DNA of 64,000 nt from Candidatus Levyibacteriota bacterium (GCA_003152105.1 PLZJ01000002.1:311761-375760); one strand, 5' to 3'; positions 12,720 to 64,000 are shown, counted from the stretch's first letter. Numbers and translations: made by a program. Notes: generated by a model from the letters alone, not told the origin.

Positions 12720-13103
12720 ATGTTCCTAAAATTTTGTATACTAATAAAGATGTTTATTATTTTTATTAATTGGTTGATATCAGCTCTTGTTATTATTGCT
12801 GCATCATATTTATTACCAGGGGTACATGTTCAGTCATTTTTAACTGCGCTGGTAGTTGCAATAGTGCTTGGCATATTGAATGCAGTTATAAAACCAATAT
12901 TATTTTTACTCACGTTGCCTCTTACTATAATAACTCTTGGATTATTCACTTTTATTTTAAACGCATTTATGATTCTTCTAGCAAGTAAAATAGTGCCTGG
13001 ATTTCATGTTGATAATTTTTGGTGGGCATTGTTATTCGGTATAATCTTGTCTATTTTTAACTCTTTTCTTCAGAACTCCAAAAAAGAGCAAAAGCTTAAG
13101 TAA
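12720..13103 (+). CDS. DUF360 / phage-holin-4-like small membrane protein (4 TM)
   Basis: Entirely hydrophobic 127-aa ORF with WLISALVIIAASYLLPGVHV and ...KIVPGFHVDNFWWALLFGIIL, typical of the YvlD/DUF360 family. Confidence 0.5.
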   Translation: MFLKFCILIKMFIIFINWLISALVIIAASYLLPGVHVQSFLTALVVAIVLGILNAVIKPILFLLTLPLTIITLGLFTFILNAFMILLASKIVPGFHVDNFWWALLFGIILSIFNSFLQNSKKEQKLK

Positions 13104-53220: not shown

Positions 53221-53273
53221 ATTGCCCAGTCTTTTGGTAAAGAGTATAATCACAAATAGGATTATTTACTAAC

Positions 53274-54530
53274 ATGCTAGATATCTCATACATAAAAGAT
53301 AATACAGAAAAAGTAATAAAAGGCATTGAAAGCAAAAATGCCTCTGTTGACGTACATAAGATAATAGAACTCGATAATGCATTTCGAGAACTTTCAGTTG
53401 ATTTGCAAAGACTCAGAGAAAAAAGAAATACGAACACATCTGCAATTTCTGGTAAGCCTACCCAAGAACAGATTGATCAAGGCAAAAGCATAAAAGAGGC
53501 AATTGAAAAGATAGAATCTGCTCTCGAGAAAATAAAAAACGATCGAGATACGTTGCTTTTACAAGTTCCGAATATTCCAAAAGCGGATGTAAAAATTGGG
53601 AAAAATGAAGACGAAAACGAAATTGTTAAAACAGTAGGTAAGCCTACTATTTTTTCTTTTACGCCAAAAGACCATGTTGAGATCGGAAAATCGCTTGATA
53701 TTATAGATATTGAACGAGCCGCCAAAGTTTCAGGACCTCGATTCGGTTATTTAAAAAATGAAGGAGTGCTTTTAGAGTTTGCATTGAAAAGATTAGCTTT
53801 CGACACGCTGTTAAAAGAAGGATTTACTCCATTATTGCCACCAGTTCTAATTAAAGAAGAAATAATGAAAGGGCTTGGATACATGGAAAATGGTGAAGAT
53901 GAAAATATGTATATTTTAGACAAAGATAACATTGTTTTAGTTGGAACTGCTGAGCAGTCAATGGTGCCTTTTCATATGAACGAGGTGCTAAAAGAGTCAG
54001 ATTTACCCAAGCGATATGTGGGATTTTCAACTTCATTTAGAAGAGAAGCTGGTAGTTATGGCAAAGATACAAAAGGAATATTTAGAGTACATCAATTTGA
54101 TAAAGTAGAAATGGTATCTTTTGTAAAAGAAGGAGAAGATGACAAAGAACAAGAATATCTTCTTTCTCTTGAAGAGCAGTTTTTCAATTTACTAGAAATT
54201 CCTTATCAAGTGGTAAAAATGTGCACTGGCGACTTAGGATTCCCTGCAGCTAGGAAATATGACTTAGAAGCATGGATGCCCTCCCAAAATAAATACAGAG
54301 AAGTAACATCAGTTTCTACTGTTACAGATTTTCAATCTCGAAGGCTCAATATTAAATACCAAGTTGGTAACGAAAAGAAGTTTGTTAGCATATTAAATGG
54401 TACTGCATATTCAATGAACAGGCCAATCATTGCTATTTTAGAAAACAATCAACAGGCAGATGGCTCTGTTCATATTCCTAAAATTTTACAGCCTTATATA
54501 GGCAAAGAAAAAATTTCTATTAAACAATAA
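53274..54530 (+). CDS. serS: serine--tRNA ligase
   Basis: N-terminal coiled coil, then ...FRREAGSYGKDTKGIFRVHQFDKVE... (class II motifs 2 and 3). Confidence 0.9.
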   Translation: MLDISYIKDNTEKVIKGIESKNASVDVHKIIELDNAFRELSVDLQRLREKRNTNTSAISGKPTQEQIDQGKSIKEAIEKIESALEKIKNDRDTLLLQVPNIPKADVKIGKNEDENEIVKTVGKPTIFSFTPKDHVEIGKSLDIIDIERAAKVSGPRFGYLKNEGVLLEFALKRLAFDTLLKEGFTPLLPPVLIKEEIMKGLGYMENGEDENMYILDKDNIVLVGTAEQSMVPFHMNEVLKESDLPKRYVGFSTSFRREAGSYGKDTKGIFRVHQFDKVEMVSFVKEGEDDKEQEYLLSLEEQFFNLLEIPYQVVKMCTGDLGFPAARKYDLEAWMPSQNKYREVTSVSTVTDFQSRRLNIKYQVGNEKKFVSILNGTAYSMNRPIIAILENNQQADGSVHIPKILQPYIGKEKISIKQ

Positions 54531-54591
54531 ACTCCCTAAAATTATTAGCAAGACTATATTTCGAGGCTATTTTGTGATAAAATAAAGCAAC

Positions 54592-57306
54592 ATGATTCCA
54601 ATAATTTCTAAATTTTTTGATTCTAACGACAAAGAAGTGACCAAGCTTTTTCCTCTTATTGAAGAAATTAATTTACTTGAAGAAAAAACTAAAAAACTAA
54701 AAGACACAGATTTTCCAAAAAAGACAAATGAATTTAAAAAAAGAATTCAAGATGGAGAATCATTGGATGCAATACTTCCTGAAGCATTTGCACTCGTTAG
54801 AGAAGCAGCAAGAAGAACTACTGGTTTGCGTCATTTTGATGTGCAACTAATGGCAGCAGTGGCTTTATCAAGAGGTAAGATTGCAGAACAAAAAACTGGT
54901 GAAGGAAAAACATTATCAGCTGTGCCTGCATTATATCTCAATGCACTAAGTGGAAATTCTGTGCATTTGGTTACTGTTAACGATTATCTTGCTCGTCGAG
55001 ATGCGGGTTGGATGGGGCCAATTTTCAGTCTTTTGGGTATGAGCGTATCATCAATAATTGCCGAACAATCTTTTGTCTTTGACCCAAATTTTATTGACGA
55101 AAATGCACATGATGTCAGATTAACTCATCTGCGTCCGATAACAAGAAAAGAAGCATACAAGTGTGAGGTTGTATATGGTATAAATTCGGAATTTGGATTT
55201 GATTATCTCAGAGACAATATGGCCCAAGATCAAGAACAAATATCTCAAACAGGACATTTTTTTGCAGTTGTTGATGAAGTAGATTCAGTTCTGATAGATG
55301 AAGCAAGAACACCCCATATTATTTCTGCTCCGGATGCACAACCTACTCAAAAGTATTATGAATACGCCAGTTTAGTTGATAAATTAAGTTCTGAAACTGA
55401 TTATAAGATTGATGAAAAAATGCGTACTGCTCATTTGACCGATCATGGCATAGGCAAAGTTGAAAAGATTTTTGGTATAAAAGATATTTATGAAAAAGAT
55501 TTCGATACAGTTTACCATCTAGAAGCTGCTCTTAAGGCAAGGACGTTGTATCAAAAAGAAAAAGATTACATTGTAAAAGACAATCAAGTTATTTTAGTTG
55601 ATGAATTTACTGGTCGTCTCATGCAAGGGAGAAGGCTTTCTGAGGGACTTCACCAAGCATTAGAAGCAAAAGAAAATGTTCCTATACAGCGAGAGTCAAA
55701 AACACTAGCAACGGTATCGTTACAGAACTACTTTAGAATGTACGAAAAATTAGCTGGTATGACAGGTACTGCAGCAACAGAAGCTGAAGAATTCCATAAA
55801 ATATATGGAATTGACGTAATTACGATTCCAACTAACAACCCGATGAAACGCATTGATCATGCAGATGTGGTATATAAAACTACTCGAGCTAAATACTCGG
55901 CTGTTGCTCAAGACATTGAGGATGCATATAAAAAAGGACAACCAGTACTGGTTGGTACGACCTCAATTGATAAAAACGAGATTATCTCACAGCTCTTAAT
56001 AAGAAAGAAGATTCCTCATGAGGTATTAAATGCAAAAAATCATGAAAGAGAAGCTGAAATAATTTCAAAAGCTGGACAAATTGGAGCAGTTACTGTTGCA
56101 ACAAATATGGCAGGACGTGGAGTAGATATTATTTTGGGTGGAGAGCCGCCTACATCTGACGATGCTCCTGCAATGAAAAAATGGGAAAAAGAGCACGAGA
56201 AGGTTATTGATCTTGGTGGTTTATATGTTATTGGAACTGAACGACATGAGTCAAGAAGAATTGATAATCAGCTACGAGGCCGATCAGGAAGACAAGGAGA
56301 TCCTGGAGCATCAAGATTTTTTGTCGCTTTGGATGATGAGATAATGCGACTTTTTGGAGGAGATAAGATCGCGGGAATAATGAGTAAGTTTAATATGCCA
56401 GAAGATACGCCTCTATCTCATGGATTAGTTTCACGAGCAATAGAGCAAGCGCAAAGTAAGGTTGAGGGATTCTATTTCCAAAATAGAAAAAATACCGTTG
56501 AATACGATGACGTTTTAAATAAGCAAAGGGAAATAATTTATGGCAGACGGAGAGAAATACTAAAAGCTGGTGCAAACACTAAAGATACGATTTTAAAGGA
56601 TCAAATTAAGGAAAAGATTCAATTAAGTATTCGAGATATTGTAACTGCTGAAGCTCAAGCTGAGTTATTGCCAAGCGGAATTGAAAATGAATCTCGGCTT
56701 CTTAATATAAATGAACGTATTGTTGCACAACTTGTAACAATCATTAATTTTGATGAAGCTTCTCAAAAACAAATTTATACACAGTTAGAGCAACTTCATG
56801 GACAAGAAGAAAAAATAGATTTTTTAGTAAAGCTTTCGTCTGATCTATATGATAAACGTGAGGTTGAAGTCGGCTCAGAATTAATGCGATTTGTCGAAAA
56901 AGCAGTAATGTTGGAAGTTAGTGATAGATTATGGATGGATAATTTAGATGCTATGGAACATTTACGACAAGGAATTGGACTTAGGGGTTATGGGCAAAGA
57001 GATCCATTAGTTGAATATAAGAATGAAGGCTTTAGAATGTTTGAAAAACTTATAAGAACAATTGATGATGAATTAGTGCATAGAATATATCGAGTACAAA
57101 TTCAAAATCAGCCACTTGAGCAAAAAAATACTAATCAAAATAACATTGAACTAAATAGGCCTCAAAGCGAGATAAGTCAAAGCGGAAGAATTGCAAAACC
57201 GAAAGTTGCTAAGCCTATAAATGAAAATAAACTAGGTAGAAATGATCTTTGTTGGTGTGGTAGTGGGAAGAAATGGAAAAAATGCCACTGGCCTCAATTA
57301 GCTTGA
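54592..57306 (+). CDS. secA: preprotein translocase ATPase SecA
   Basis: ...LHDVQLMAAVALSRGKIAEQKTGEGKTL..., DEVDS.LIDEARTP.IIS, and the C-terminal zinc finger CWCGSGKKWKKCH. Confidence 0.95.
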   Translation: MIPIISKFFDSNDKEVTKLFPLIEEINLLEEKTKKLKDTDFPKKTNEFKKRIQDGESLDAILPEAFALVREAARRTTGLRHFDVQLMAAVALSRGKIAEQKTGEGKTLSAVPALYLNALSGNSVHLVTVNDYLARRDAGWMGPIFSLLGMSVSSIIAEQSFVFDPNFIDENAHDVRLTHLRPITRKEAYKCEVVYGINSEFGFDYLRDNMAQDQEQISQTGHFFAVVDEVDSVLIDEARTPHIISAPDAQPTQKYYEYASLVDKLSSETDYKIDEKMRTAHLTDHGIGKVEKIFGIKDIYEKDFDTVYHLEAALKARTLYQKEKDYIVKDNQVILVDEFTGRLMQGRRLSEGLHQALEAKENVPIQRESKTLATVSLQNYFRMYEKLAGMTGTAATEAEEFHKIYGIDVITIPTNNPMKRIDHADVVYKTTRAKYSAVAQDIEDAYKKGQPVLVGTTSIDKNEIISQLLIRKKIPHEVLNAKNHEREAEIISKAGQIGAVTVATNMAGRGVDIILGGEPPTSDDAPAMKKWEKEHEKVIDLGGLYVIGTERHESRRIDNQLRGRSGRQGDPGASRFFVALDDEIMRLFGGDKIAGIMSKFNMPEDTPLSHGLVSRAIEQAQSKVEGFYFQNRKNTVEYDDVLNKQREIIYGRRREILKAGANTKDTILKDQIKEKIQLSIRDIVTAEAQAELLPSGIENESRLLNINERIVAQLVTIINFDEASQKQIYTQLEQLHGQEEKIDFLVKLSSDLYDKREVEVGSELMRFVEKAVMLEVSDRLWMDNLDAMEHLRQGIGLRGYGQRDPLVEYKNEGFRMFEKLIRTIDDELVHRIYRVQIQNQPLEQKNTNQNNIELNRPQSEISQSGRIAKPKVAKPINENKLGRNDLCWCGSGKKWKKCHWPQLA
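57277..57302 (+). repeat. copy 1 of a 26-bp imperfect direct repeat (last 26 nt of secA: aaaaaatgccactggcctcaattagc). Copy 2 lies at 59467-59492
   Basis: 24 of 26 nt identical between the copies. They bracket the GC-rich TetR+SDR segment. Confidence 0.7.
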
Positions 57307-57385
57307 TTTAACAGACTAAAATAATATTATTGGAGTAATAAATATCAGTATATTAAATATAGTCAAATTATACCATAATAATGGA

Positions 57386-58069
57386 CTAAATGTGCTTGCC
57401 AAGAATCAGGGGCTCATAGCTTCGAGCGTCTTGTAGCAACTGTTCACGTGCAATACCGGCCTTAGCGCGAATTTTCAAACCCTGCACTAGGTCAACGAGC
57501 GCACGACTTCGCACCTTGGCAGAAGGTGTTCGAGTCAGACGACCTGCCTTTATCTCCTTTTCGAAACGTATCGCGAAAATATCAGCAGATTCATTGAGGG
57601 CTTTTGCGACAAATATACGTATCTCCGTTACACGCTCCGACTGTCCCAGCGTAGCGGAAAGCATCAGGCAACCGGCACGACCCTCACTCGAAGCGGTGTT
57701 GACAGTAGCCTCACAAAGGGCCGCTACAGCCTTATGGATATCCGGCTCCGCTCGAAAATCTGCCAGCATGGCTGCTCCATACGTTATTGCATAGCGCTCA
57801 ACCGCCTTGAGTAGTAGGGTTGACTTGTTTCCGAAGGCTCGGTAAATCGCGGGTTTGGTGACATTCACAGCCCGTGCGATCCGATTTACGTCAACTCCTT
57901 CATACCCATGTTCCCAAAACATCTCAACGGCACGATCGAGGGCTTCGTCAGGGATAAAGCTTTTTGGACGTCCTGGTGTTCGGTTTGTTGTATTAGTTAC
58001 CATAGAGTATGAAATTGGTCCTTGCATTACACTTTTTATTATTATACTCTTGAGTATGTAATACATCAA
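57386..58069 (-). CDS. TetR/AcrR family transcriptional regulator (GC-rich, foreign-looking composition)
   Basis: An N-terminal HTH ...LDRAVEMFWEHGYEGVDVNRIARAVNVTKPAIYRAFGNKSTLL... and an all-alpha C-terminal domain. Codon usage is GC3-rich, unlike the flanking genes. Confidence 0.8.
   Translation of the reverse strand: MMYYILKSIIIKSVMQGPISYSMVTNTTNRTPGRPKSFIPDEALDRAVEMFWEHGYEGVDVNRIARAVNVTKPAIYRAFGNKSTLLLKAVERYAITYGAAMLADFRAEPDIHKAVAALCEATVNTASSEGRAGCLMLSATLGQSERVTEIRIFVAKALNESADIFAIRFEKEIKAGRLTRTPSAKVRSRALVDLVQGLKIRAKAGIAREQLLQDARSYEPLILGKHI
58044..58057. promoter_or_regulatory. palindrome ATACTC-TT-GAGTAT overlapping a TATACT -10-like box in the 23-bp tetR/SDR divergent junction. Candidate TetR operator
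   Basis: A 6-2-6 perfect inverted repeat inside the AT-rich divergent promoter region between the tetR start (58069) and the SDR start (58093). Confidence 0.3.
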
Positions 58070-58092: not shown

Positions 58093-59097
58093 ATGGATAC
58101 GATCAAAGAAAAAACAAGTCGACCCTCACTTTCTACAATGAAGAAATCTATCAAACATTCGATCGCACTCATCACCGGTGCCACCTCAGGGGTCGGTTAT
58201 GCGGCTGGCCGCATGCTCGCCATCGAGGGCTACCGTCAGATCATCGTTACCGGACGCAGTCTGGCCCAGATTCAAGAAACGGCCGCTCAGCTCGCGGCTG
58301 AGACCAAGATACAGGTCTTCACGCCGCTGGAACTGGAGCTGGATAGTGTATCCAGCGTTCAGTCCTTCCTCGCCGAGCACGTCAAGCGAGGTCAGCCGGT
58401 CGACTTCCTACTGCTCAATGCAGGAATCATGGGACGTAAGGAACTCAAGCTCACTGCGGCAGGAATAGAGATGTCTTCGGCTCCGCTCATCGGCCATCAT
58501 CAACTGACTGTCGGGTTGCTCCGCGCCAAGCTGTTGAGCCCGAATGCTCGAATTGTTATTGCCAGCTCGGAAGCTGCCCGAGGTGATGTACCCCTGTTCA
58601 GCTACACCGATGTAGCGGCCTTCGCGGCCAAATACTTCCAGGGTGACCGAACCGCTGCTGTGGAAGCCTTGTTGCATAGCGGACCGAATGTAAAATATCA
58701 GCCCAACCGGGCGTTCGCAGATGCGAAACTAATCGGTACTTTGTGGGTAGCTGCACTGGCTCGCCGGCTGCCCTCCGGCATGGCGATATATGCCGTTTCG
58801 CCTGGTGCCGCGCCTGCCACCAATGCGGTGCGAAACGCAGGTCTCCTTACGAGATTGGTGCTGATTCCACTGACGAAGCTTATCCCCGGCATGTCTCATA
58901 CTCCTGAGACCGCGGCCCGTCGGTATCTCAATGCATCGGAATTCGGAACCGACGTTTCGGGTCAATTCTTCGCATCGCCGCCCAAGAAGTTAACCGGCCC
59001 AATCGAGGCAATGCGCCAACCACACTTTCACGATCGAGCCAACCAGGAAGCCGCGTGGCAGGCCGTCGTCAAGGTTACGGGCGTCGATTTGTCTTAA
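58093..59097 (+). CDS. short-chain dehydrogenase/reductase (SDR) family oxidoreductase (GC-rich)
   Basis: ...IALITGATSGVGYAAGRML... (TGxxxGxG), ...LLLNAGIM... (NAG), and AAGGAG Shine-Dalgarno before ATG 58093. Divergent from the TetR gene. Confidence 0.8.
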   Translation: MDTIKEKTSRPSLSTMKKSIKHSIALITGATSGVGYAAGRMLAIEGYRQIIVTGRSLAQIQETAAQLAAETKIQVFTPLELELDSVSSVQSFLAEHVKRGQPVDFLLLNAGIMGRKELKLTAAGIEMSSAPLIGHHQLTVGLLRAKLLSPNARIVIASSEAARGDVPLFSYTDVAAFAAKYFQGDRTAAVEALLHSGPNVKYQPNRAFADAKLIGTLWVAALARRLPSGMAIYAVSPGAAPATNAVRNAGLLTRLVLIPLTKLIPGMSHTPETAARRYLNASEFGTDVSGQFFASPPKKLTGPIEAMRQPHFHDRANQEAAWQAVVKVTGVDLS

Positions 59098-59466
59098 CCA
59101 GCATCCTTGAGAGCGGTGTTCTGAAATTCTGAAATTAAATCACTGGTTTCTTTACGTATCCCAGCTTGTTGCTGTCTATTTTGCTCTATAGTTTACCCAA
59201 GTGGGCTTAATTAGTTGTGTTGAAACTAATGATCCAATTGGCGGCAAATTTTTGACGAGCTTTTCAATTAGCTAGGACACTCAAGTTCAGTATTATATAC
59301 TATAAGACTGTTAATGAGCCTGTAAGTCATGACTTATCAGTGTCTCATTTGTCTCACTAAGCCTGTATAAGAGACATCGCTATAATGATAATATGGGTTT
59401 AGACCGCTATACTCAGGGATTGCGGATTCGGCCGAAGCTATTTGGTACCTATTTAAATGACAGTTC

Positions 59467-59492
59467 AAAAAATGTCATTGGCCTCAATTAGC
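59467..59492 (+). repeat. copy 2 of the secA-terminus direct repeat (aaaaaatgtcattggcctcaattagc)
   Basis: See copy 1. It lies about 370 bp after the SDR stop and just before an AT-rich spacer. Confidence 0.7.
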
Positions 59493-59724
59493 CTAACTTT
59501 ACTTTTATACAATTATTGCCTTAATTACTATTTATGATTTTTTCCAAAAGAAAAAACCACCCTTTATTATTATCCGCTTACGCGGTCCCAAGAAGGGAAG
59601 GATGGTTTAGATATTCAATTGTAGATTTGTGCAGCCGAAGCTGGATTGATAACGGGATCATCCGTCTTGGTCGTCGAATTGACGCTCAAGCCCCATGGAG
59701 ACCATGAGTTTATGTGATATTCAG

Positions 59725-60645
59725 TTATTTGGTTGGCGTCGACGATCCGTTCCCGAGACTCCCCAAGTTGAAGAGATTGCCCGAGTTGTTCGGAAGGACG
59801 TAGACCTTCGCTTGTCCGTAGAGGCTCTGTACCGCCTGGATCGAGAGATATCTCAGCACCTGCGGTGAAAGCGACTTGGTCAAGAGGGAGTTAGCCTTTG
59901 ATTGGCCTTCTGCCTTGGCGATGGTAGCCCTACGAGCTCCTTCAGCTTGTGCAACGACTTGTTGCGCTTGAAGTTGAGCTGTTTGAACCTGCTGGGCCGC
60001 GATCTGTTTTGCCTCGATGCTCTGCTCGAACTGCTTGCTGTAGTTGAAGTTTGAGATAAGTAGATTGTCTACTATAATCCCATTCTTCCCAAGATCAGTC
60101 GTGAGAGCATTCTGGATTTTGACAGAAAGCTGAGCTCGATTCGGAGCGATCTCCACCGTGTGGTAGTGAGATACTTGCTCCTTCACGTCTTGCTGGACTT
60201 GGTTTGGTACCAAGACATCGAACCAGTCAACTCCAAAATCTCGGTAGAGATGTTGAAGTTTGGTCGGATCGAGATGGTAGTTCAGCTGGACATCAAACGT
60301 TAGAGTCTGAGACTCCTTCGAGAACGCGTTGATGTTGTTTTCCGTGAACTTCTGCGTCTTGACGTTGGCGGTGTGGACCGAATTCCAAGGTGCGACAAAG
60401 TGCGTTCCCGATTGAAGGGGAGACCCGCTAAGTACACCGGAATAGTTGTAGACCATACCGACTTGCCCGGTTCCGATGTTTTGGATCGATGCTATGAAGA
60501 AGATCACAAAATACAGAACCACTGTAGCTCCGGCGGCCGCCCATCCTGCACCTTTTTCGCCTGTTGTTTCACCGAAGAGACCGAATGCCAGTCCGAGAAA
60601 GATGATGATGAGTCCGACGACAGTTAAACCGATCCATAGTGCCAT
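59725..60645 (-). CDS. SPFH / band-7 (stomatin-prohibitin-HflK/C-like) membrane protein (GC-rich)
   Basis: N-terminal TM helices, then ...GQVGMVYNYSGVLSGSPLQSGTHFVAPW... and a long Ala/Gln coiled-coil tail (...AQQVQTAQLQAQQVVAQAEGARRATIAKAEG...), typical of SPFH domains. Confidence 0.8.
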   Translation of the reverse strand: MALWIGLTVVGLIIIFLGLAFGLFGETTGEKGAGWAAAGATVVLYFVIFFIASIQNIGTGQVGMVYNYSGVLSGSPLQSGTHFVAPWNSVHTANVKTQKFTENNINAFSKESQTLTFDVQLNYHLDPTKLQHLYRDFGVDWFDVLVPNQVQQDVKEQVSHYHTVEIAPNRAQLSVKIQNALTTDLGKNGIIVDNLLISNFNYSKQFEQSIEAKQIAAQQVQTAQLQAQQVVAQAEGARRATIAKAEGQSKANSLLTKSLSPQVLRYLSIQAVQSLYGQAKVYVLPNNSGNLFNLGSLGNGSSTPTK

Positions 60646-60887
60646 GTGCGTTCAACTCCTTGTTGTTATTTCGGCATTGATCGAACTACTTTTAGTGCTA
60701 CACGTTTCACCCTCCATTTTGTTATTTGTTGTCTTCTCATTTATGCCCATGATAGATTATGGATTAGTACAAATATTTATACTTTTGCATAAAAAAGAAG
60801 ACAACTTTTCTCAGCAATTGAGAGTTAATAAAGGATGTCCTACAATTAAATGTAAATGTGCTACTAAATTCCCTATAGGGTATTTAG

Positions 60888-60944
60888 TAATACAGGATTA
60901 TATACTGAAAACATGAAATTGTCAATATTATAGGATTAAAATTA
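60888..60944. repeat. AT-rich repeated motif, copy A: ..TACAGGATTATATACT.. AAATTGTCAATATTATAGGATTAAAATT. Copy B is at 61899-61927, and a third TACAGGATTAAT is at 63899-63912
   Basis: The shared core is AAATTGTCAA-N5-7-TA(c/t)AGGATTA(t/a)AT. The copies lie in the spacers that flank the GC-rich SHOCT gene patch. Confidence 0.5.
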
Positions 60945-61068
60945 TTGAAGCTAAAGGGAGTGCGCGGGGGTTGTTGTAGCTAGAGTAGCTAAGATCTGTA
61001 GCTTGAATCACAGATTGTCCAGATGGACCAACACCCCACACGCGGCGCACATCTTTGTTGCGGGTTAC

Positions 61069-61329
61069 TTACGCGCTTGAACTTGGTCGATGAACGACAT
61101 CTTTAACCTTTTGTTCATAGGTTGGGAAGTCCATCTCGCCTGCAACGTATTTGTCTTGAAGAGACTTGATCGTATCTTCTTCGGATCCGAGTTCCTGCTC
61201 CTTCGCTTGGAGAGTTTTCTCCTTAGCTTTCACCTTGGAACGTTGTTTCCTCAAGTACCCGATGAAGAAGATTCCTCCACTACCGAGTAAGAGCATGCCT
61301 ACCACGACATCAAGTAGATCTCTTAGCAT
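61069..61329 (-). CDS. SHOCT-domain small membrane protein (GC-rich)
   Basis: N-terminal TM (LLLGSGGIFFIGYL), then ...LQDKYVAGEMDFPTYEQKVKDV..., resembling the short C-terminal SHOCT domain. Confidence 0.5.
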   Translation of the reverse strand: MLRDLLDVVVGMLLLGSGGIFFIGYLRKQRSKVKAKEKTLQAKEQELGSEEDTIKSLQDKYVAGEMDFPTYEQKVKDVVHRPSSSA

Positions 61330-61898
61330 TGCGAATTCCTTTCAGTGTTTTGTTGAGTTTGAATATGTCTATTCGACGTTTTTGTCGCGTTTTGCCTCCT
61401 TCTTGTATGAAAGTATTGTTAAACGAAAATGACCGCGATTACCTTGACTACATCAAATACTCCTTCAAAGTTCACTTCTGTCCCTTCGTTGATTATGAGT
61501 CTACCGGAATATTCTAATCTCCATTTCAGAAGCAGCTTCGAAGAATAGAATCAGAGTAAAAGCTCCAAATAGAACAAAAAAGACTGTGTTAGAAACATCG
61601 TACTTATGATGTGATAAGTTAATGAGAGCTAATGAATATCCTGCTGTACTCAAATTAGCTATCATAGCTAGAACAAGTAGCAATGCTCTTATCAAGTAAC
61701 TCTATATTTTTCCTTAATGTTATTTCTATATACCTGGGAAAGAGAAAAGGTTATTACCATCTCTCTTCCCAAGGCAAAAGAATATAAGGAATGTTCCGCA
61801 ACTTGTGAATGTGCAATAAGTTAAAAAAGGCTTTAATTTAGACAGCTATAGTCTAATTTAGCTCTTTTTTAGCCATGGGAGTATAGCAATAAATAGTC

Positions 61899-61927
61899 AA
61901 ATTGTCAAATACTACAGGATTATATTT
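61899..61927. repeat. AT-rich repeated motif, copy B (CAAATTGTCAAATACTACAGGATTATATTTT)
   Basis: See copy A. Confidence 0.5.
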
Positions 61928-62146
61928 TCGGCTTGCTTAAGTACATAACTTCTATAGTTTCACAGGTATTTGAGGTTTAAACCAATTTATTTCAAAAAAA
62001 GGTCCACAAAATAATAATTAGATTGTATTTATTGGCCAGGTCAATTAATATTCATGGACTTTATTGGTGGTTAACTATTCTGTAAGCGTAACTATTTTAT
62101 TCCCGATCTTGGCCAAAATTTAAAAAAGAAGTGGTATAATTTAGGA

Positions 62147-62569
62147 GTGATCACGCTTCGTCCCTATAGCCCAAATGACCACAGACAAATACTGGCTATT
62201 TTAAAAGAGTCTGGAATGGGTCCTTATGAAAATTGGGATGACTTGGATAATTACGCATCTATAGTTAAACTAGATAATGAAAATATCCTAGTAGCTCAAG
62301 ATGATGCAGAAATTATAGGCGTAGTCTTACTTACTTTTTTTGGTAGTAAAGTAGCATGGATTTTTAGACTTGCGGTTAAGGAAGCGTATAGGGAAAAAGG
62401 CATTGGTTCAAAATTAATTGAAGAAGCAGAAAAGATTGTTAGGAAAAAAGGAGTTAAAGAATTAGGTTTATATGCAAATGCTTCAAATATGAAGCTCCAA
62501 AGTTTCTACAAAAAGAGAAAATACAAAACGTTTGGAAAAGAGTATATTTACATGTGGAAGCTTATGTAA
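62147..62569 (+). CDS. GNAT family N-acetyltransferase (GTG start in the track; TGGTATAAT extended -10 at 62130-62138)
   Basis: ...IIGVVLLTFFGSKVAWIFRLAVKEAYREKGIGSKLIEEAEKI... (acetyl-CoA-binding motif A: R/Q-x-x-G-x-G/A). Confidence 0.7.
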   Translation: MITLRPYSPNDHRQILAILKESGMGPYENWDDLDNYASIVKLDNENILVAQDDAEIIGVVLLTFFGSKVAWIFRLAVKEAYREKGIGSKLIEEAEKIVRKKGVKELGLYANASNMKLQSFYKKRKYKTFGKEYIYMWKLM

Positions 62570-63856: not shown

Positions 63857-64000
63857 ATGTCTCTTGCAATAACAAAAATTAAAGTATTTTATAAATATAT
63901 TACAGGATTAATTAAAAAGAAAAGCTTTAAGCGTTTTTACGCAAAACAAGTAATTAGAATTCGAAAGCATCCACTACTCAGTTTTTGCTTAGTACTATTT
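63857..64000 (+). CDS. hypothetical protein, 5' fragment (runs off the window end)
   Basis: ATG at 63857 with an open frame to the window end (MSLAITKIKVFYKYITGLIKKK...). Confidence 0.25.
   Translation, partial: MSLAITKIKVFYKYITGLIKKKSFKRFYAKQVIRIRKHPLLSFCLVLF

Follow-up and report, generated by a model that had tools for sequence, protein, structure and literature searches.

A probable foreign SPFH membrane-protein cassette with predicted promoters, structured leader and terminator in a Levybacteria-like Patescibacteria chromosome

We analysed a stretch of 64,000 nucleotides (nt) from a Candidatus Levyibacteriota bacterium (PLZJ01000002.1:311761-375760; hereafter the window), in which a gene for an SPFH/band-7 protein and a smaller neighbouring gene lie on the minus strand downstream of secA (54592-57306). 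With a probability of about 0.75, positions 59538-61927 constitute one self-contained foreign cassette of ~2.4 kb that runs from promoter to terminator and comprises two minus-strand transcription units. Unit 1 would extend from a promoter, P1, through a leader and small membrane-peptide open reading frames (ORFs) to the gene for an 86-aa single-pass membrane/coiled-coil protein and a GC-rich end of three hairpins; unit 2 would extend from a second promoter, P2, through a 245-nt leader, the last helix of which would partly occlude the ribosome-binding site, to a prohibitin-type SPFH gene and an intrinsic terminator. The cassette would have been acquired horizontally in one piece and independently of the neighbouring TetR/SDR gene pair. 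To judge from what is known of the family, the SPFH protein would assemble into an oligomeric membrane scaffold of the prohibitin/HflKC kind, the small membrane protein or proteins serving as partner, which scaffold may modulate a membrane protease or the local organisation of the membrane, and the leader would control either the translation of the SPFH gene or the stability of its mRNA.

The window comes from a metagenomic scaffold of 1.14 Mb (WOOD18-1_SAMN07125042 scaffold_5) that represents a Levybacteria-like Patescibacteria chromosome of about 33% GC, and the SecA encoded there is 64-69% identical to the SecA of Levybacteria and of other Patescibacteria metagenome-assembled genomes. As background we used 68 ORF-based genes of the window, which have a GC content of 34.0±2.6% (maximum 38.7%) and a GC content at third codon positions (GC3) of 20.5±3.6%. 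Measured against that background the SPFH gene (59725-60645) stands out at 50.5% GC (z=6.3) and 58.6% GC3 (z=10.6), as does the 86-aa ORF (61069-61329) at 45.6% GC (z=4.4) and 48.3% GC3 (z=7.7), while the spacers at 60646-60949 (29.9% GC) and 61501-61927 (32.3%) resemble the host intergenic DNA (30.4%). An earlier annotation of the window made from the DNA alone (the sequence-only reading) had described just such GC-rich gene patches separated by host-like AT-rich spacers, and in this respect was accurate; the 120 bp that it regarded as a GC-rich region upstream of the smaller gene (60950-61068, 52.9%) are indeed GC-rich, but lie on its 3' side, downstream on the coding strand. The composition is as atypical as that of a genomic island, although no integrase or recombinase gene and no convincing att direct repeats accompany it. 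Nor did the switches in composition arise in assembly, the contigs L002, L003, L041, and L052-L056—from Logan assemblies of five runs and from a JGI assembly—reproducing 53237-57705 and 58966-62483 and spanning the junctions at ~59538 and ~61927 together with both of the internal GC/AT switches. All but L003 are 100% identical to the window; L003 is 99.1% identical, with its differences confined to 58974-59042 in the SDR gene. At least seven independent assemblies agree on the sequence, and misassembly is thereby excluded.

The same block is present in a second genome, from JGI metagenome 3300005529 (Ga0070741), on a 3.9-kb contig (L049/L050/L057) and on a further contig, L058. The former contains the only homologue of the 86-aa gene, and the latter starts with the 3' part of an SPFH gene that is 88% identical to that of the window; L049 and L058 are collinear with the window from 61927 to 59538 and align with it nowhere else. 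The 86-aa gene, a 423-nt spacer, the SPFH gene, and the terminator follow one another there in the same order, and the alternation of GC-rich and AT-rich segments is repeated. The flanks in that genome, of 30-36% GC, are unrelated to those of the window: the module is bordered by Nudix and GT87 genes at one end and by a tRNA-Ser(GGA), a 400-aa gene, and others at the opposite one. The limits of homology lie just past the U-tract of the terminator (~59538) and ~20 nt upstream of the -35 hexamer of P1.

The identity between the two copies is 79% in the 86-aa coding sequence, 86% in the GC-rich element at 60950-61068, 84% in the SPFH leader, and 77% in the SPFH coding sequence, with a sharp fall at the SPFH start codon; the third codon positions of the two coding sequences differ at 39% and 43%. 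Because the spacers are better conserved (84-86%) than the coding sequences (77-79%), we take them for regulatory DNA belonging to the cassette rather than for host DNA lying between insertions. The GC3 of the two genes is 0.49/0.58 in the window and 0.61/0.67 in the second copy, compared with 0.20 in the host, and changes toward A/T are in excess (53 vs 28), which pattern fits a transfer from a GC-richer pool followed by partial amelioration rather than a long divergence within AT-rich hosts.

The spacers had also attracted notice for a repeated motif of about 30 bp, composed of AAATTGTCAA and a TAYAGGATTA core, around which the sequence-only reading had built the proposal of a mosaic of small foreign insertions at recurrent motif sites. 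Searched as a whole of 25 nt, with a fixed gap and a tolerance of 3 mismatches, the motif gave no match, the two copies differing by a 1-nt indel, and for that reason we searched for the halves separately. Within the window, AAATTGTCAA occurs exactly only at 60916 and 61899, and TAYAGGATTA at 60891, 60929, 61913, 63901, and 15256. At 60888-60944, where the motif had been thought to be tandemly duplicated, the core is doubled (38 nt apart), but the AAATTGTCAA half is single; the third core copy noted at 63899 does exist, but is internal (at 63899/63901) to a gene for a membrane-fusion protein, whose coding sequence begins at 63857.

On the minus strand, which is that of both genes, the motif copies prove to be the two top-scoring matches to a sigma-70-type promoter between 57000 and 64000. 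Reverse-complemented, AAATTGTCAA gives the -35 hexamer plus ATTT, with TTGACAATTT being that hexamer as it appears in the motif on the opposite strand, and the TAYAGGATTATAT of the earlier annotation is the reverse complement of TATAAT with the adjoining bases. The predicted P2 (60925-60897) is the best site in that interval, a TTGACA-N17-TATAAT with 12/12 consensus positions: its -35 TTGACA at 60925-60920 and -10 TATAAT at 60902-60897 are 17 nt apart, the upstream element TAATCCTATAATA occupies 60938-60926, and the whole stands 252 nt upstream of the SPFH start codon, the region 60897-60938 being the one that had been viewed as the tandem duplication. The predicted P1 (61908-61880), upstream of the 86-aa unit, is a TTGACA-N17-TATACT with a TG before the -10 (11/12), in which the -35 TTGACA (61908-61903) is again 17 nt from the -10 TATACT (61885-61880) and is preceded by TAATCCTGTAGTAT at 61922-61909; this site is the motif copy at 61899-61927 seen from the opposite strand, and homology with the second genome has its 5' limit there too.

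Sites with at least 11 of the 12 consensus positions number only six in 71 kb (the window and the 7 kb past its end), among which three are correctly placed host promoters (12720, 35584, and 63752), one is antisense inside the SPFH gene and is a chance occurrence, and the remaining two are P1 and P2. In the second genome both hexamers and the 17-nt spacing of P2 are identical, and at the place homologous to P1 the contig L049 has TTGACT-N17-TAAACT together with TCCTGTAGTAT. The two sites, then, combine the hexamers, a spacer within the range of 16-18 nt, an orientation toward the gene, and conservation at the orthologous locus. Because host genes at 12720, 35584, and 63752 use the same consensus, we regard the hexamers as the generic promoter consensus, and we read the 30-bp motif as the ordinary sigma-70 promoters of the cassette viewed on the wrong strand. 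The sequence-only reading had conceded that its insertion sites would fall if the motif proved to be a ubiquitous promoter element, and that is essentially what we find. Common to P1 and P2 is, in addition, a CCTRTARTAT element that abuts the -35 of each, within TAATCCTGTAGTAT and TAATCCTATAATA, respectively, and recurs with one change at both of the L049 promoters; this element may be UP-like or may be the site of a regulator.

The 5' leader of the SPFH gene (60646-60890, minus strand; about 245 nt) is structured, its fold exceeding that of shuffled sequences with a z of -7.2 in the window and of -4.7 in L049. The leader begins with a 24-nt palindrome or hairpin, CTAAATACCCTATAGGGAATTTAG (60887-60864), that is 100% conserved, continues with a long hairpin of variable loop (60805-60787 with 60746-60728), and ends in a 3' helix that partly pairs with the Shine-Dalgarno sequence AAGGAG (60661-60656). 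In the comparison with L049, 62 consensus pairs are kept and none is broken, with six one-sided compatible changes and one compensatory change; the identity reaches 90-95% in the stems, and an 11-nt indel is confined to a loop. At the other end of the unit, the 3' untranslated region (59544-59724, minus strand) carries the intrinsic, Rho-independent terminator that the sequence-only reading had correctly recognised as a hairpin with a U6 after the SPFH stop codon: a branched stem-loop (59608-59551) followed by U6CUUUU, the whole at 59608-59544 on the minus strand, with a fold z of -3.9. The 18 pairs include, with respect to L058, three compensatory changes, one one-sided, and none broken, and an inner GNRA loop is kept as GUAA/GCAA; a simple scan for terminators missed the structure owing to the branched loop.

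Between the two units, directly 3' of the 86-aa stop codon on the minus strand, stands the GC-rich element (60950-61068), made up of three hairpins inside a closing stem (61050-61029 with 60976-60960), after which comes UCCCUUU. This element folds with -43.8 kcal/mol (z=-3.8), has 34/34 pairs kept in L049, and is to be considered non-coding because it differs from L049 by indels of 2, 1, and 2 nt. We suggest that it probably serves unit 1 as terminator or insulator; it may also be an RNA with a stabilising or regulatory role. No Rfam family corresponds to it, and in a search of Rfam 15 the leader and this element drew nothing but miRNA and sRNA models, which scored 11-22 bits where the thresholds are 41-245. 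A coding interpretation of the conserved spacer was discarded in view of the indels of 2, 1, 2, and 11 nt and the lack of any conserved ORF preceded by a Shine-Dalgarno sequence; a candidate 32-aa ORF and antisense ORFs there show mostly non-synonymous changes. It is a tentative idea, to which we give appreciably less than even odds, that the 245-nt leader and the GC-rich element could be undescribed cis-regulatory RNAs—a translational switch responsive to a ligand, to temperature, or to membrane stress, for example—of a recombinase-less cassette that moves among Patescibacteria genomes with its GC-rich coding sequence kept.

The leader of unit 1 (61700-61879, minus strand) contains a 21-mer and a near-perfect hairpin. 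The 21-mer, TTGCACATTCACAAGTTGCGG (61816-61796; L049 2290-2310), is identical at 21/21 positions in both genomes within a leader of otherwise ~51% identity; the hairpin (61770-61736) is kept in the second genome in position, but not in sequence, with two compensatory pairs that constitute a weak signal. Compared with Rfam, this leader gave only sub-threshold matches of the miRNA type. There follows a variable segment of host-like GC (34%; 61501-61695, minus strand) with orf64, a hydrophobic ORF of 64 aa that has no match in Pfam, NCBIfam, or PHROG. We considered orf64 as a gene of the module and set that candidacy aside, the segment being of host-like GC and only 38% identical—that is, unaligned—to the second genome; orf64 is unlikely to be a conserved module gene. 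At that place L049 has instead an unrelated, highly basic ORF of 33 aa with a good Shine-Dalgarno sequence (2396-2497). Next comes a truncated small transmembrane ORF (61419-61475, minus strand) of 18 codons, translated from the sequence as VNFEGVFDVVKVIAVIFV* and similar to the N-terminus of the 86-aa protein; this ORF is intact in the second genome, where it encodes 35 aa (L049 2625-2732). Since the two copies differ both at the place of orf64 and in the 35-aa/18-codon peptide, the small-ORF content of unit 1 is variable.

The 86-aa protein (minus strand), an orphan, has a transmembrane helix at the N-terminus, then a basic stretch and a coiled coil, and LQDKYxAGExDFxTYEQ as its C-terminal segment. 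Its single true homologue in 5.8 billion proteins is P0012 (79% identity), itself without a Pfam domain, and no family could be assigned in Pfam, NCBIfam, PHROGs, PADLOC, or the PDB. The sequence-only reading had labelled it a SHOCT-domain protein and alternatively an NfeD-like partner, neither of which labels could be confirmed: Pfam gave no SHOCT match even at E<=10, among 1.84 billion representatives searched exhaustively with a profile nothing emerged but crescentin-like coiled-coil noise and no SHOCT-bearing relatives, and neither this protein nor orf64 has an NfeD domain or any meaningful match to one in Pfam or NCBIfam. What the protein shares with SHOCT proteins (PF09851) is the architecture of an N-terminal transmembrane helix and a short C-terminal domain, and by eye its C-terminus, LQDKYvAGEmDFpTYEQKVKDV, resembles the SHOCT pattern, L..rYA.GEI..eEY, which resemblance is a lead only.

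With respect to the SPFH protein, the assignment of the sequence-only reading was upheld. The 306-aa product has two N-terminal hydrophobic segments, a Band_7 domain, and a C-terminal Q/A-rich coiled coil; it matches Band_7 (PF01145) at residues 57-229 over profile positions 3-174 of 176, with 109.9 bits against a gathering score of 23.6 (E=1.9e-31). All eight matches (8/8) in a search of the PDB are prohibitins, in a range of 9e-20 to 1e-17 for prohibitin-1/2, the best being prohibitin-2 (8rrh_B, 9e-20), and those nearest solved relatives, together with the hydrophobic N-terminus and the Q/A-rich C-terminal region of the translation, place the protein in the prohibitin subfamily. An N-terminal membrane anchor with a C-terminal coiled coil is a trait of the proteins that build ring- or cage-like membrane scaffolds. 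From the prohibitin/HflK-HflC branch, with which it thus shares a full Band_7 domain and general layout, the protein nevertheless departs in its low identity to any characterised member and in its scores with the NCBIfam equivalogs, which stay far below the cut-offs (HflC, 21.6 bits vs 134.4; HflK, 15.6 bits vs 159.4); furthermore, whereas HflK/HflC and PHB1/PHB2 are encoded by paired SPFH genes, the locus has a single one without an hflK-hflC pair, and its product apparently has two N-terminal hydrophobic segments.

The clade is sparse, a word-seeded search of 5.8 billion proteins having given 10 matches. The identity is 81-88% to the Ga0070741 fragments, and the nearest non-self homologues are otherwise only 34-39% identical and lie in contigs of 48-59% GC. 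The strongest profile is that of the phage prohibitin family PHROG 200 (phrog_200; 1.2e-52, residues 2-287), to members of which—annotated as "lipoprotein" or "prohibitin family protein" in, for example, Staphylococcus phage 6ec/SEP9, Brevibacillus phage Sundance, and Fusobacterium phage Fnu1—the identity by tblastn is 27-29%; homologues occur in 228 phage records, and a scan of IMG/VR gave one match, of 30%. The nearest metagenomic relatives are in phage-like contigs and often adjoin a tiny transmembrane peptide, though the gene of the module, in contrast, belongs to a bacterial chromosome and has no phage genes in its vicinity. Among those contigs, L043 (118 kb) contains, besides DUF6197, dozens of small co-directional ORFs; a PIN domain and a phage zinc-binding domain are encoded in L047. 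In three contigs of 48.7-59% GC the SPFH homologues (35-39%) adjoin a single-pass peptide of 35-42 aa with a charged tail (L043 5873-6001, L047 811-918, L062 1323-1436); these tiny peptides recall the small transmembrane genes of the window module, and the pairing of SPFH with a micro-peptide is apparently recurrent and undescribed. PADLOC identified no defence protein in the SPFH, the 86-aa, the TetR, or the SDR products.

That a small membrane-protein gene and an SPFH gene share a strand and remain linked in different genomes recalls the SPFH-NfeD operons (e.g. PH1511/PH1510, YqiK/YqiJ, FloT/YuaF), from which the module differs in that the 86-aa protein is devoid of NfeD or any other Pfam domain and in that its two genes are not obviously co-transcribed, given the structured element and the separate, perfect promoter that intervene. 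With the genomic islets and morons of Patescibacteria it has in common an atypical composition, discrete boundaries, a promoter and terminator of its own, different flanks in a second genome, and perhaps also a position beside the 3' end of a conserved gene (secA in the window, tRNA-Ser in L058), but it is without an integrase, a clear att duplication, or a phage context. Horizontal islands have been reported to be common in Patescibacteria, and genomic islands have been catalogued (PMC12455944).

The sequence-only reading had offered, as a second proposal, a membrane-scaffold module acquired en bloc with the adjacent TetR (57386-58069, minus strand) and SDR (58093-59097, plus strand) genes. 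An en-bloc acquisition of SPFH with a small partner is supported, but a joint acquisition with TetR/SDR is not supported, because the second genome has the module without TetR/SDR, because the homology of the module stops at 59538, because the gene pool of the SDR differs, and because a duplication of the secA end brackets TetR/SDR alone. As to the gene pool, the SDR protein has thousands of close homologues (74-87% aa identity, one annotated as Ktedonobacterales), whereas the SPFH and 86-aa proteins have essentially one, and the SDR gene (58093-59119; L063 4568-5567) is 84% identical in nucleotides to a gene in a contig of 64.5% GC, where it is again beside a divergent TetR. As to the duplication, the last nine secA codons and the stop occur at 57277-57312 and, outside the module in its flank, at 59467-59502 (plus strand; KKCHWPQLA*), as 36 nt of 83% identity 2.19 kb apart. 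The four in-codon differences are synonymous or stop-to-stop (TGC/TGT, CAC/CAT, GCT/GCC, TGA/TAA), and at 3/4 sites the distal copy has the more host-like A/T-ending codon. The arrangement looks like an insertion into the 3' end of the gene in which the incoming DNA brought a surrogate end, yet without an integrase. Since the duplication brackets TetR/SDR alone, the SPFH terminator would once have been ~40 nt from the secA end, in convergent orientation, and TetR/SDR would have been inserted separately.

The terminator of the module is 36-41 nt from that former secA 3' end in the window and ~190 nt from the 3' end of the tRNA-Ser(GGA) at L058 783-871 in the second genome, a placement beside 3' ends that, with two cases only, is suggestive and nothing beyond that. 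Among 36 secA loci from Levybacteria-like and other genomes (<=69% SecA identity), the order serS-secA is common and nothing downstream is shared, so that no empty site could be defined. A third degenerate copy of the secA 3' end near 62031-62047, which would have bracketed the SPFH module, was rejected after 182/300 shuffles scored as well.

Among the alternatives to a cassette acquired in one piece, the one to which we give the least credence is that assembly or binning placed GC-rich reads of a different organism within an AT-rich Patescibacteria scaffold, an artefact of which the abrupt switches in composition and the metagenomic source might arouse suspicion, and against which stand the Logan assemblies of five runs and the JGI assembly, with their junctions and internal GC/AT switches, and the recurrence of the alternation in the second genome. 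Scarcely more credible is the mosaic of independent small insertions, with each GC-rich gene at a recurrent AT-rich motif that acted as a hotspot or attachment site. GC-rich and AT-rich segments do alternate, the spacers are host-like in base composition, and the motif cores are concentrated toward the window's end, in its last 3 kb; yet the same genes, spacers, and order recur at ~80% identity in a collinear second genome where conservation is higher in the spacers than in the genes, the motif copies fall exactly on promoter hexamers that point toward the genes, one copy (63901) is inside a coding sequence, and none is present at the homology boundary on the terminator side (59538). A long-resident module inherited vertically from a common Patescibacteria ancestor, the flanks having been rearranged and the high GC either kept by selection or left from an old transfer, deserves more attention, although we still judge it improbable. 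Both carriers are AT-rich genomes with small genes, and the lower GC3 of the window copy with the excess of changes toward A/T (53 vs 28) would be amelioration in progress; but both flanks are wholly different with the breakpoints exactly at promoter and terminator, a third-position divergence of ~40% accumulated inside such hosts would have brought GC3 much nearer to 0.20, the module genes are found in 0/36 of the related secA loci, and the 86-aa protein has only one homologue in 5.8 billion proteins.

Acquisition as one cassette consequently remains the reading that we prefer, and several points weigh against it. Only two diverged copies are available, and the covariation is thin, with one compensatory pair in the leader and none in the GC-rich element; a leader of 30% GC beside genes of 58% GC3 would be unusual for any single donor; no recombinase occurs within 10 kb of the module, no clear target-site duplication and no significant terminal direct or inverted repeats were found at its ends in the window, and a weak 22-nt direct repeat (19/22; 3/300 shuffles) flanks it in the second genome only (L058 657-679, L049 2059-2081). 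Furthermore, the functions of promoters, terminator, and leader are read from the nucleotide sequence, an interaction between the 86-aa and SPFH proteins is suggested only by their linkage in two genomes, and vertical descent with rearrangement keeps its small share of the probability. Two further proposals are compatible with a single cassette. The one, which concerns origin only and which we hold to be possible though rather doubtful, is that the module is a phage-derived moron or prophage remnant, an autonomous promoter-gene-terminator unit left in the chromosome. The top family match to phrog_200 (1.2e-52), the 228 phage records, the nearest non-self homologues (35-38%) in the phage-like GC-rich contigs L043 and L047 (56-59% GC), and the possession of its own promoter and its own terminator, which is the classic layout of a moron, all favour that origin; against it, the window and the second genome alike are free of phage structural, integrase, and repressor genes for 10 kb to either side, IMG/VR has no match to the conserved non-coding elements (exact-pattern scans) or to the 86-aa protein (protein scan), and one homologue (34%) is found in an ordinary groundwater bacterial context beside the genes for ribosomal protein S16, TrmD, and HtrA. 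The other, about equally speculative, would make CCTRTARTAT/TAATCCTRTA and the 24-bp leader palindrome the operators of a dedicated regulator co-controlling both units. In its favour, CCTRTARTAT adjoins the -35 of P1 and P2 and is kept with one change at both L049 promoters, TAATCCTRTA is found five times with every copy on the minus strand, matches with at most one mismatch amount to 22 against 12.4±3.5 expected, and the palindrome at 60887-60864 is fully conserved; but the copy that overlaps the -10 (60900-60891) is not kept downstream of TATAAT in L049, the module has no regulator gene, the adjoining TetR has a different palindrome of its own (58044-58057) and is absent from the second genome, the A/T-rich stretch upstream of the -35 could be a plain UP-like element, and the palindrome is equally explicable as a 5' RNA hairpin.

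Some further features of the neighbourhood remain to be recorded. The TetR palindrome, ATACTC-TT-GAGTAT, is perfect and lies at 58044-58057, within the 23 nt that separate the divergently oriented TetR and SDR genes; it is likely to be the TetR operator and is unrelated to the palindrome of the SPFH leader, and in view of this dissimilarity and the absence of TetR from the second genome we dismissed TetR as a regulator of the module. Run SRR7151531 (L003) contains a variant SDR allele with 18 differences, all within 58974-59042, after which it is identical to the window; no Logan contig had the exact SDR protein, which suggests a strain-level polymorphism in the SDR segment. At 59364-59376, within a TGTCTC...GAGACA inverted repeat, we observed TGTATAAGAGACA, which shares 13 consecutive bases, and 14/19 positions overall, with the Tn5/Nextera mosaic end; an adapter chimera was rejected on account of the match of only 14/19 and the reproduction of the region by the independent assembly L003, and the likeness was judged to be chance. 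Around and past the end of the window (L051 471-7473, ~0-7 kb past 64000), an RND efflux pair—the membrane-fusion protein from 63857 and an AcrB-like gene—precedes a VirD4/TrwB-like ATPase (DUF87, TrwB_AAD_bind), after which comes a UDG gene.

What had appeared to be a mosaic with a repeat would thus become a horizontally acquired, self-regulated membrane-scaffold cassette, and a false lead toward an insertion-hotspot motif is removed. The cassette itself, as a small horizontally acquired set of membrane-protein genes, is an object of a known type; the novelty, of which there is some, would lie solely in the RNA structures of the leader and of the element between the units, on the evidence of two sequences. 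Patescibacteria depend on contact with their hosts and on membrane functions, and the module would provide a clean example, with defined boundaries, of the entry of foreign membrane-protein genes into a streamlined genome of that group. The regulation and the function of the SPFH/prohibitin family in bacteria are still poorly understood, and the non-coding parts of the module, being more conserved than its proteins, offer a candidate for a new structured leader RNA that may control an SPFH/prohibitin gene.

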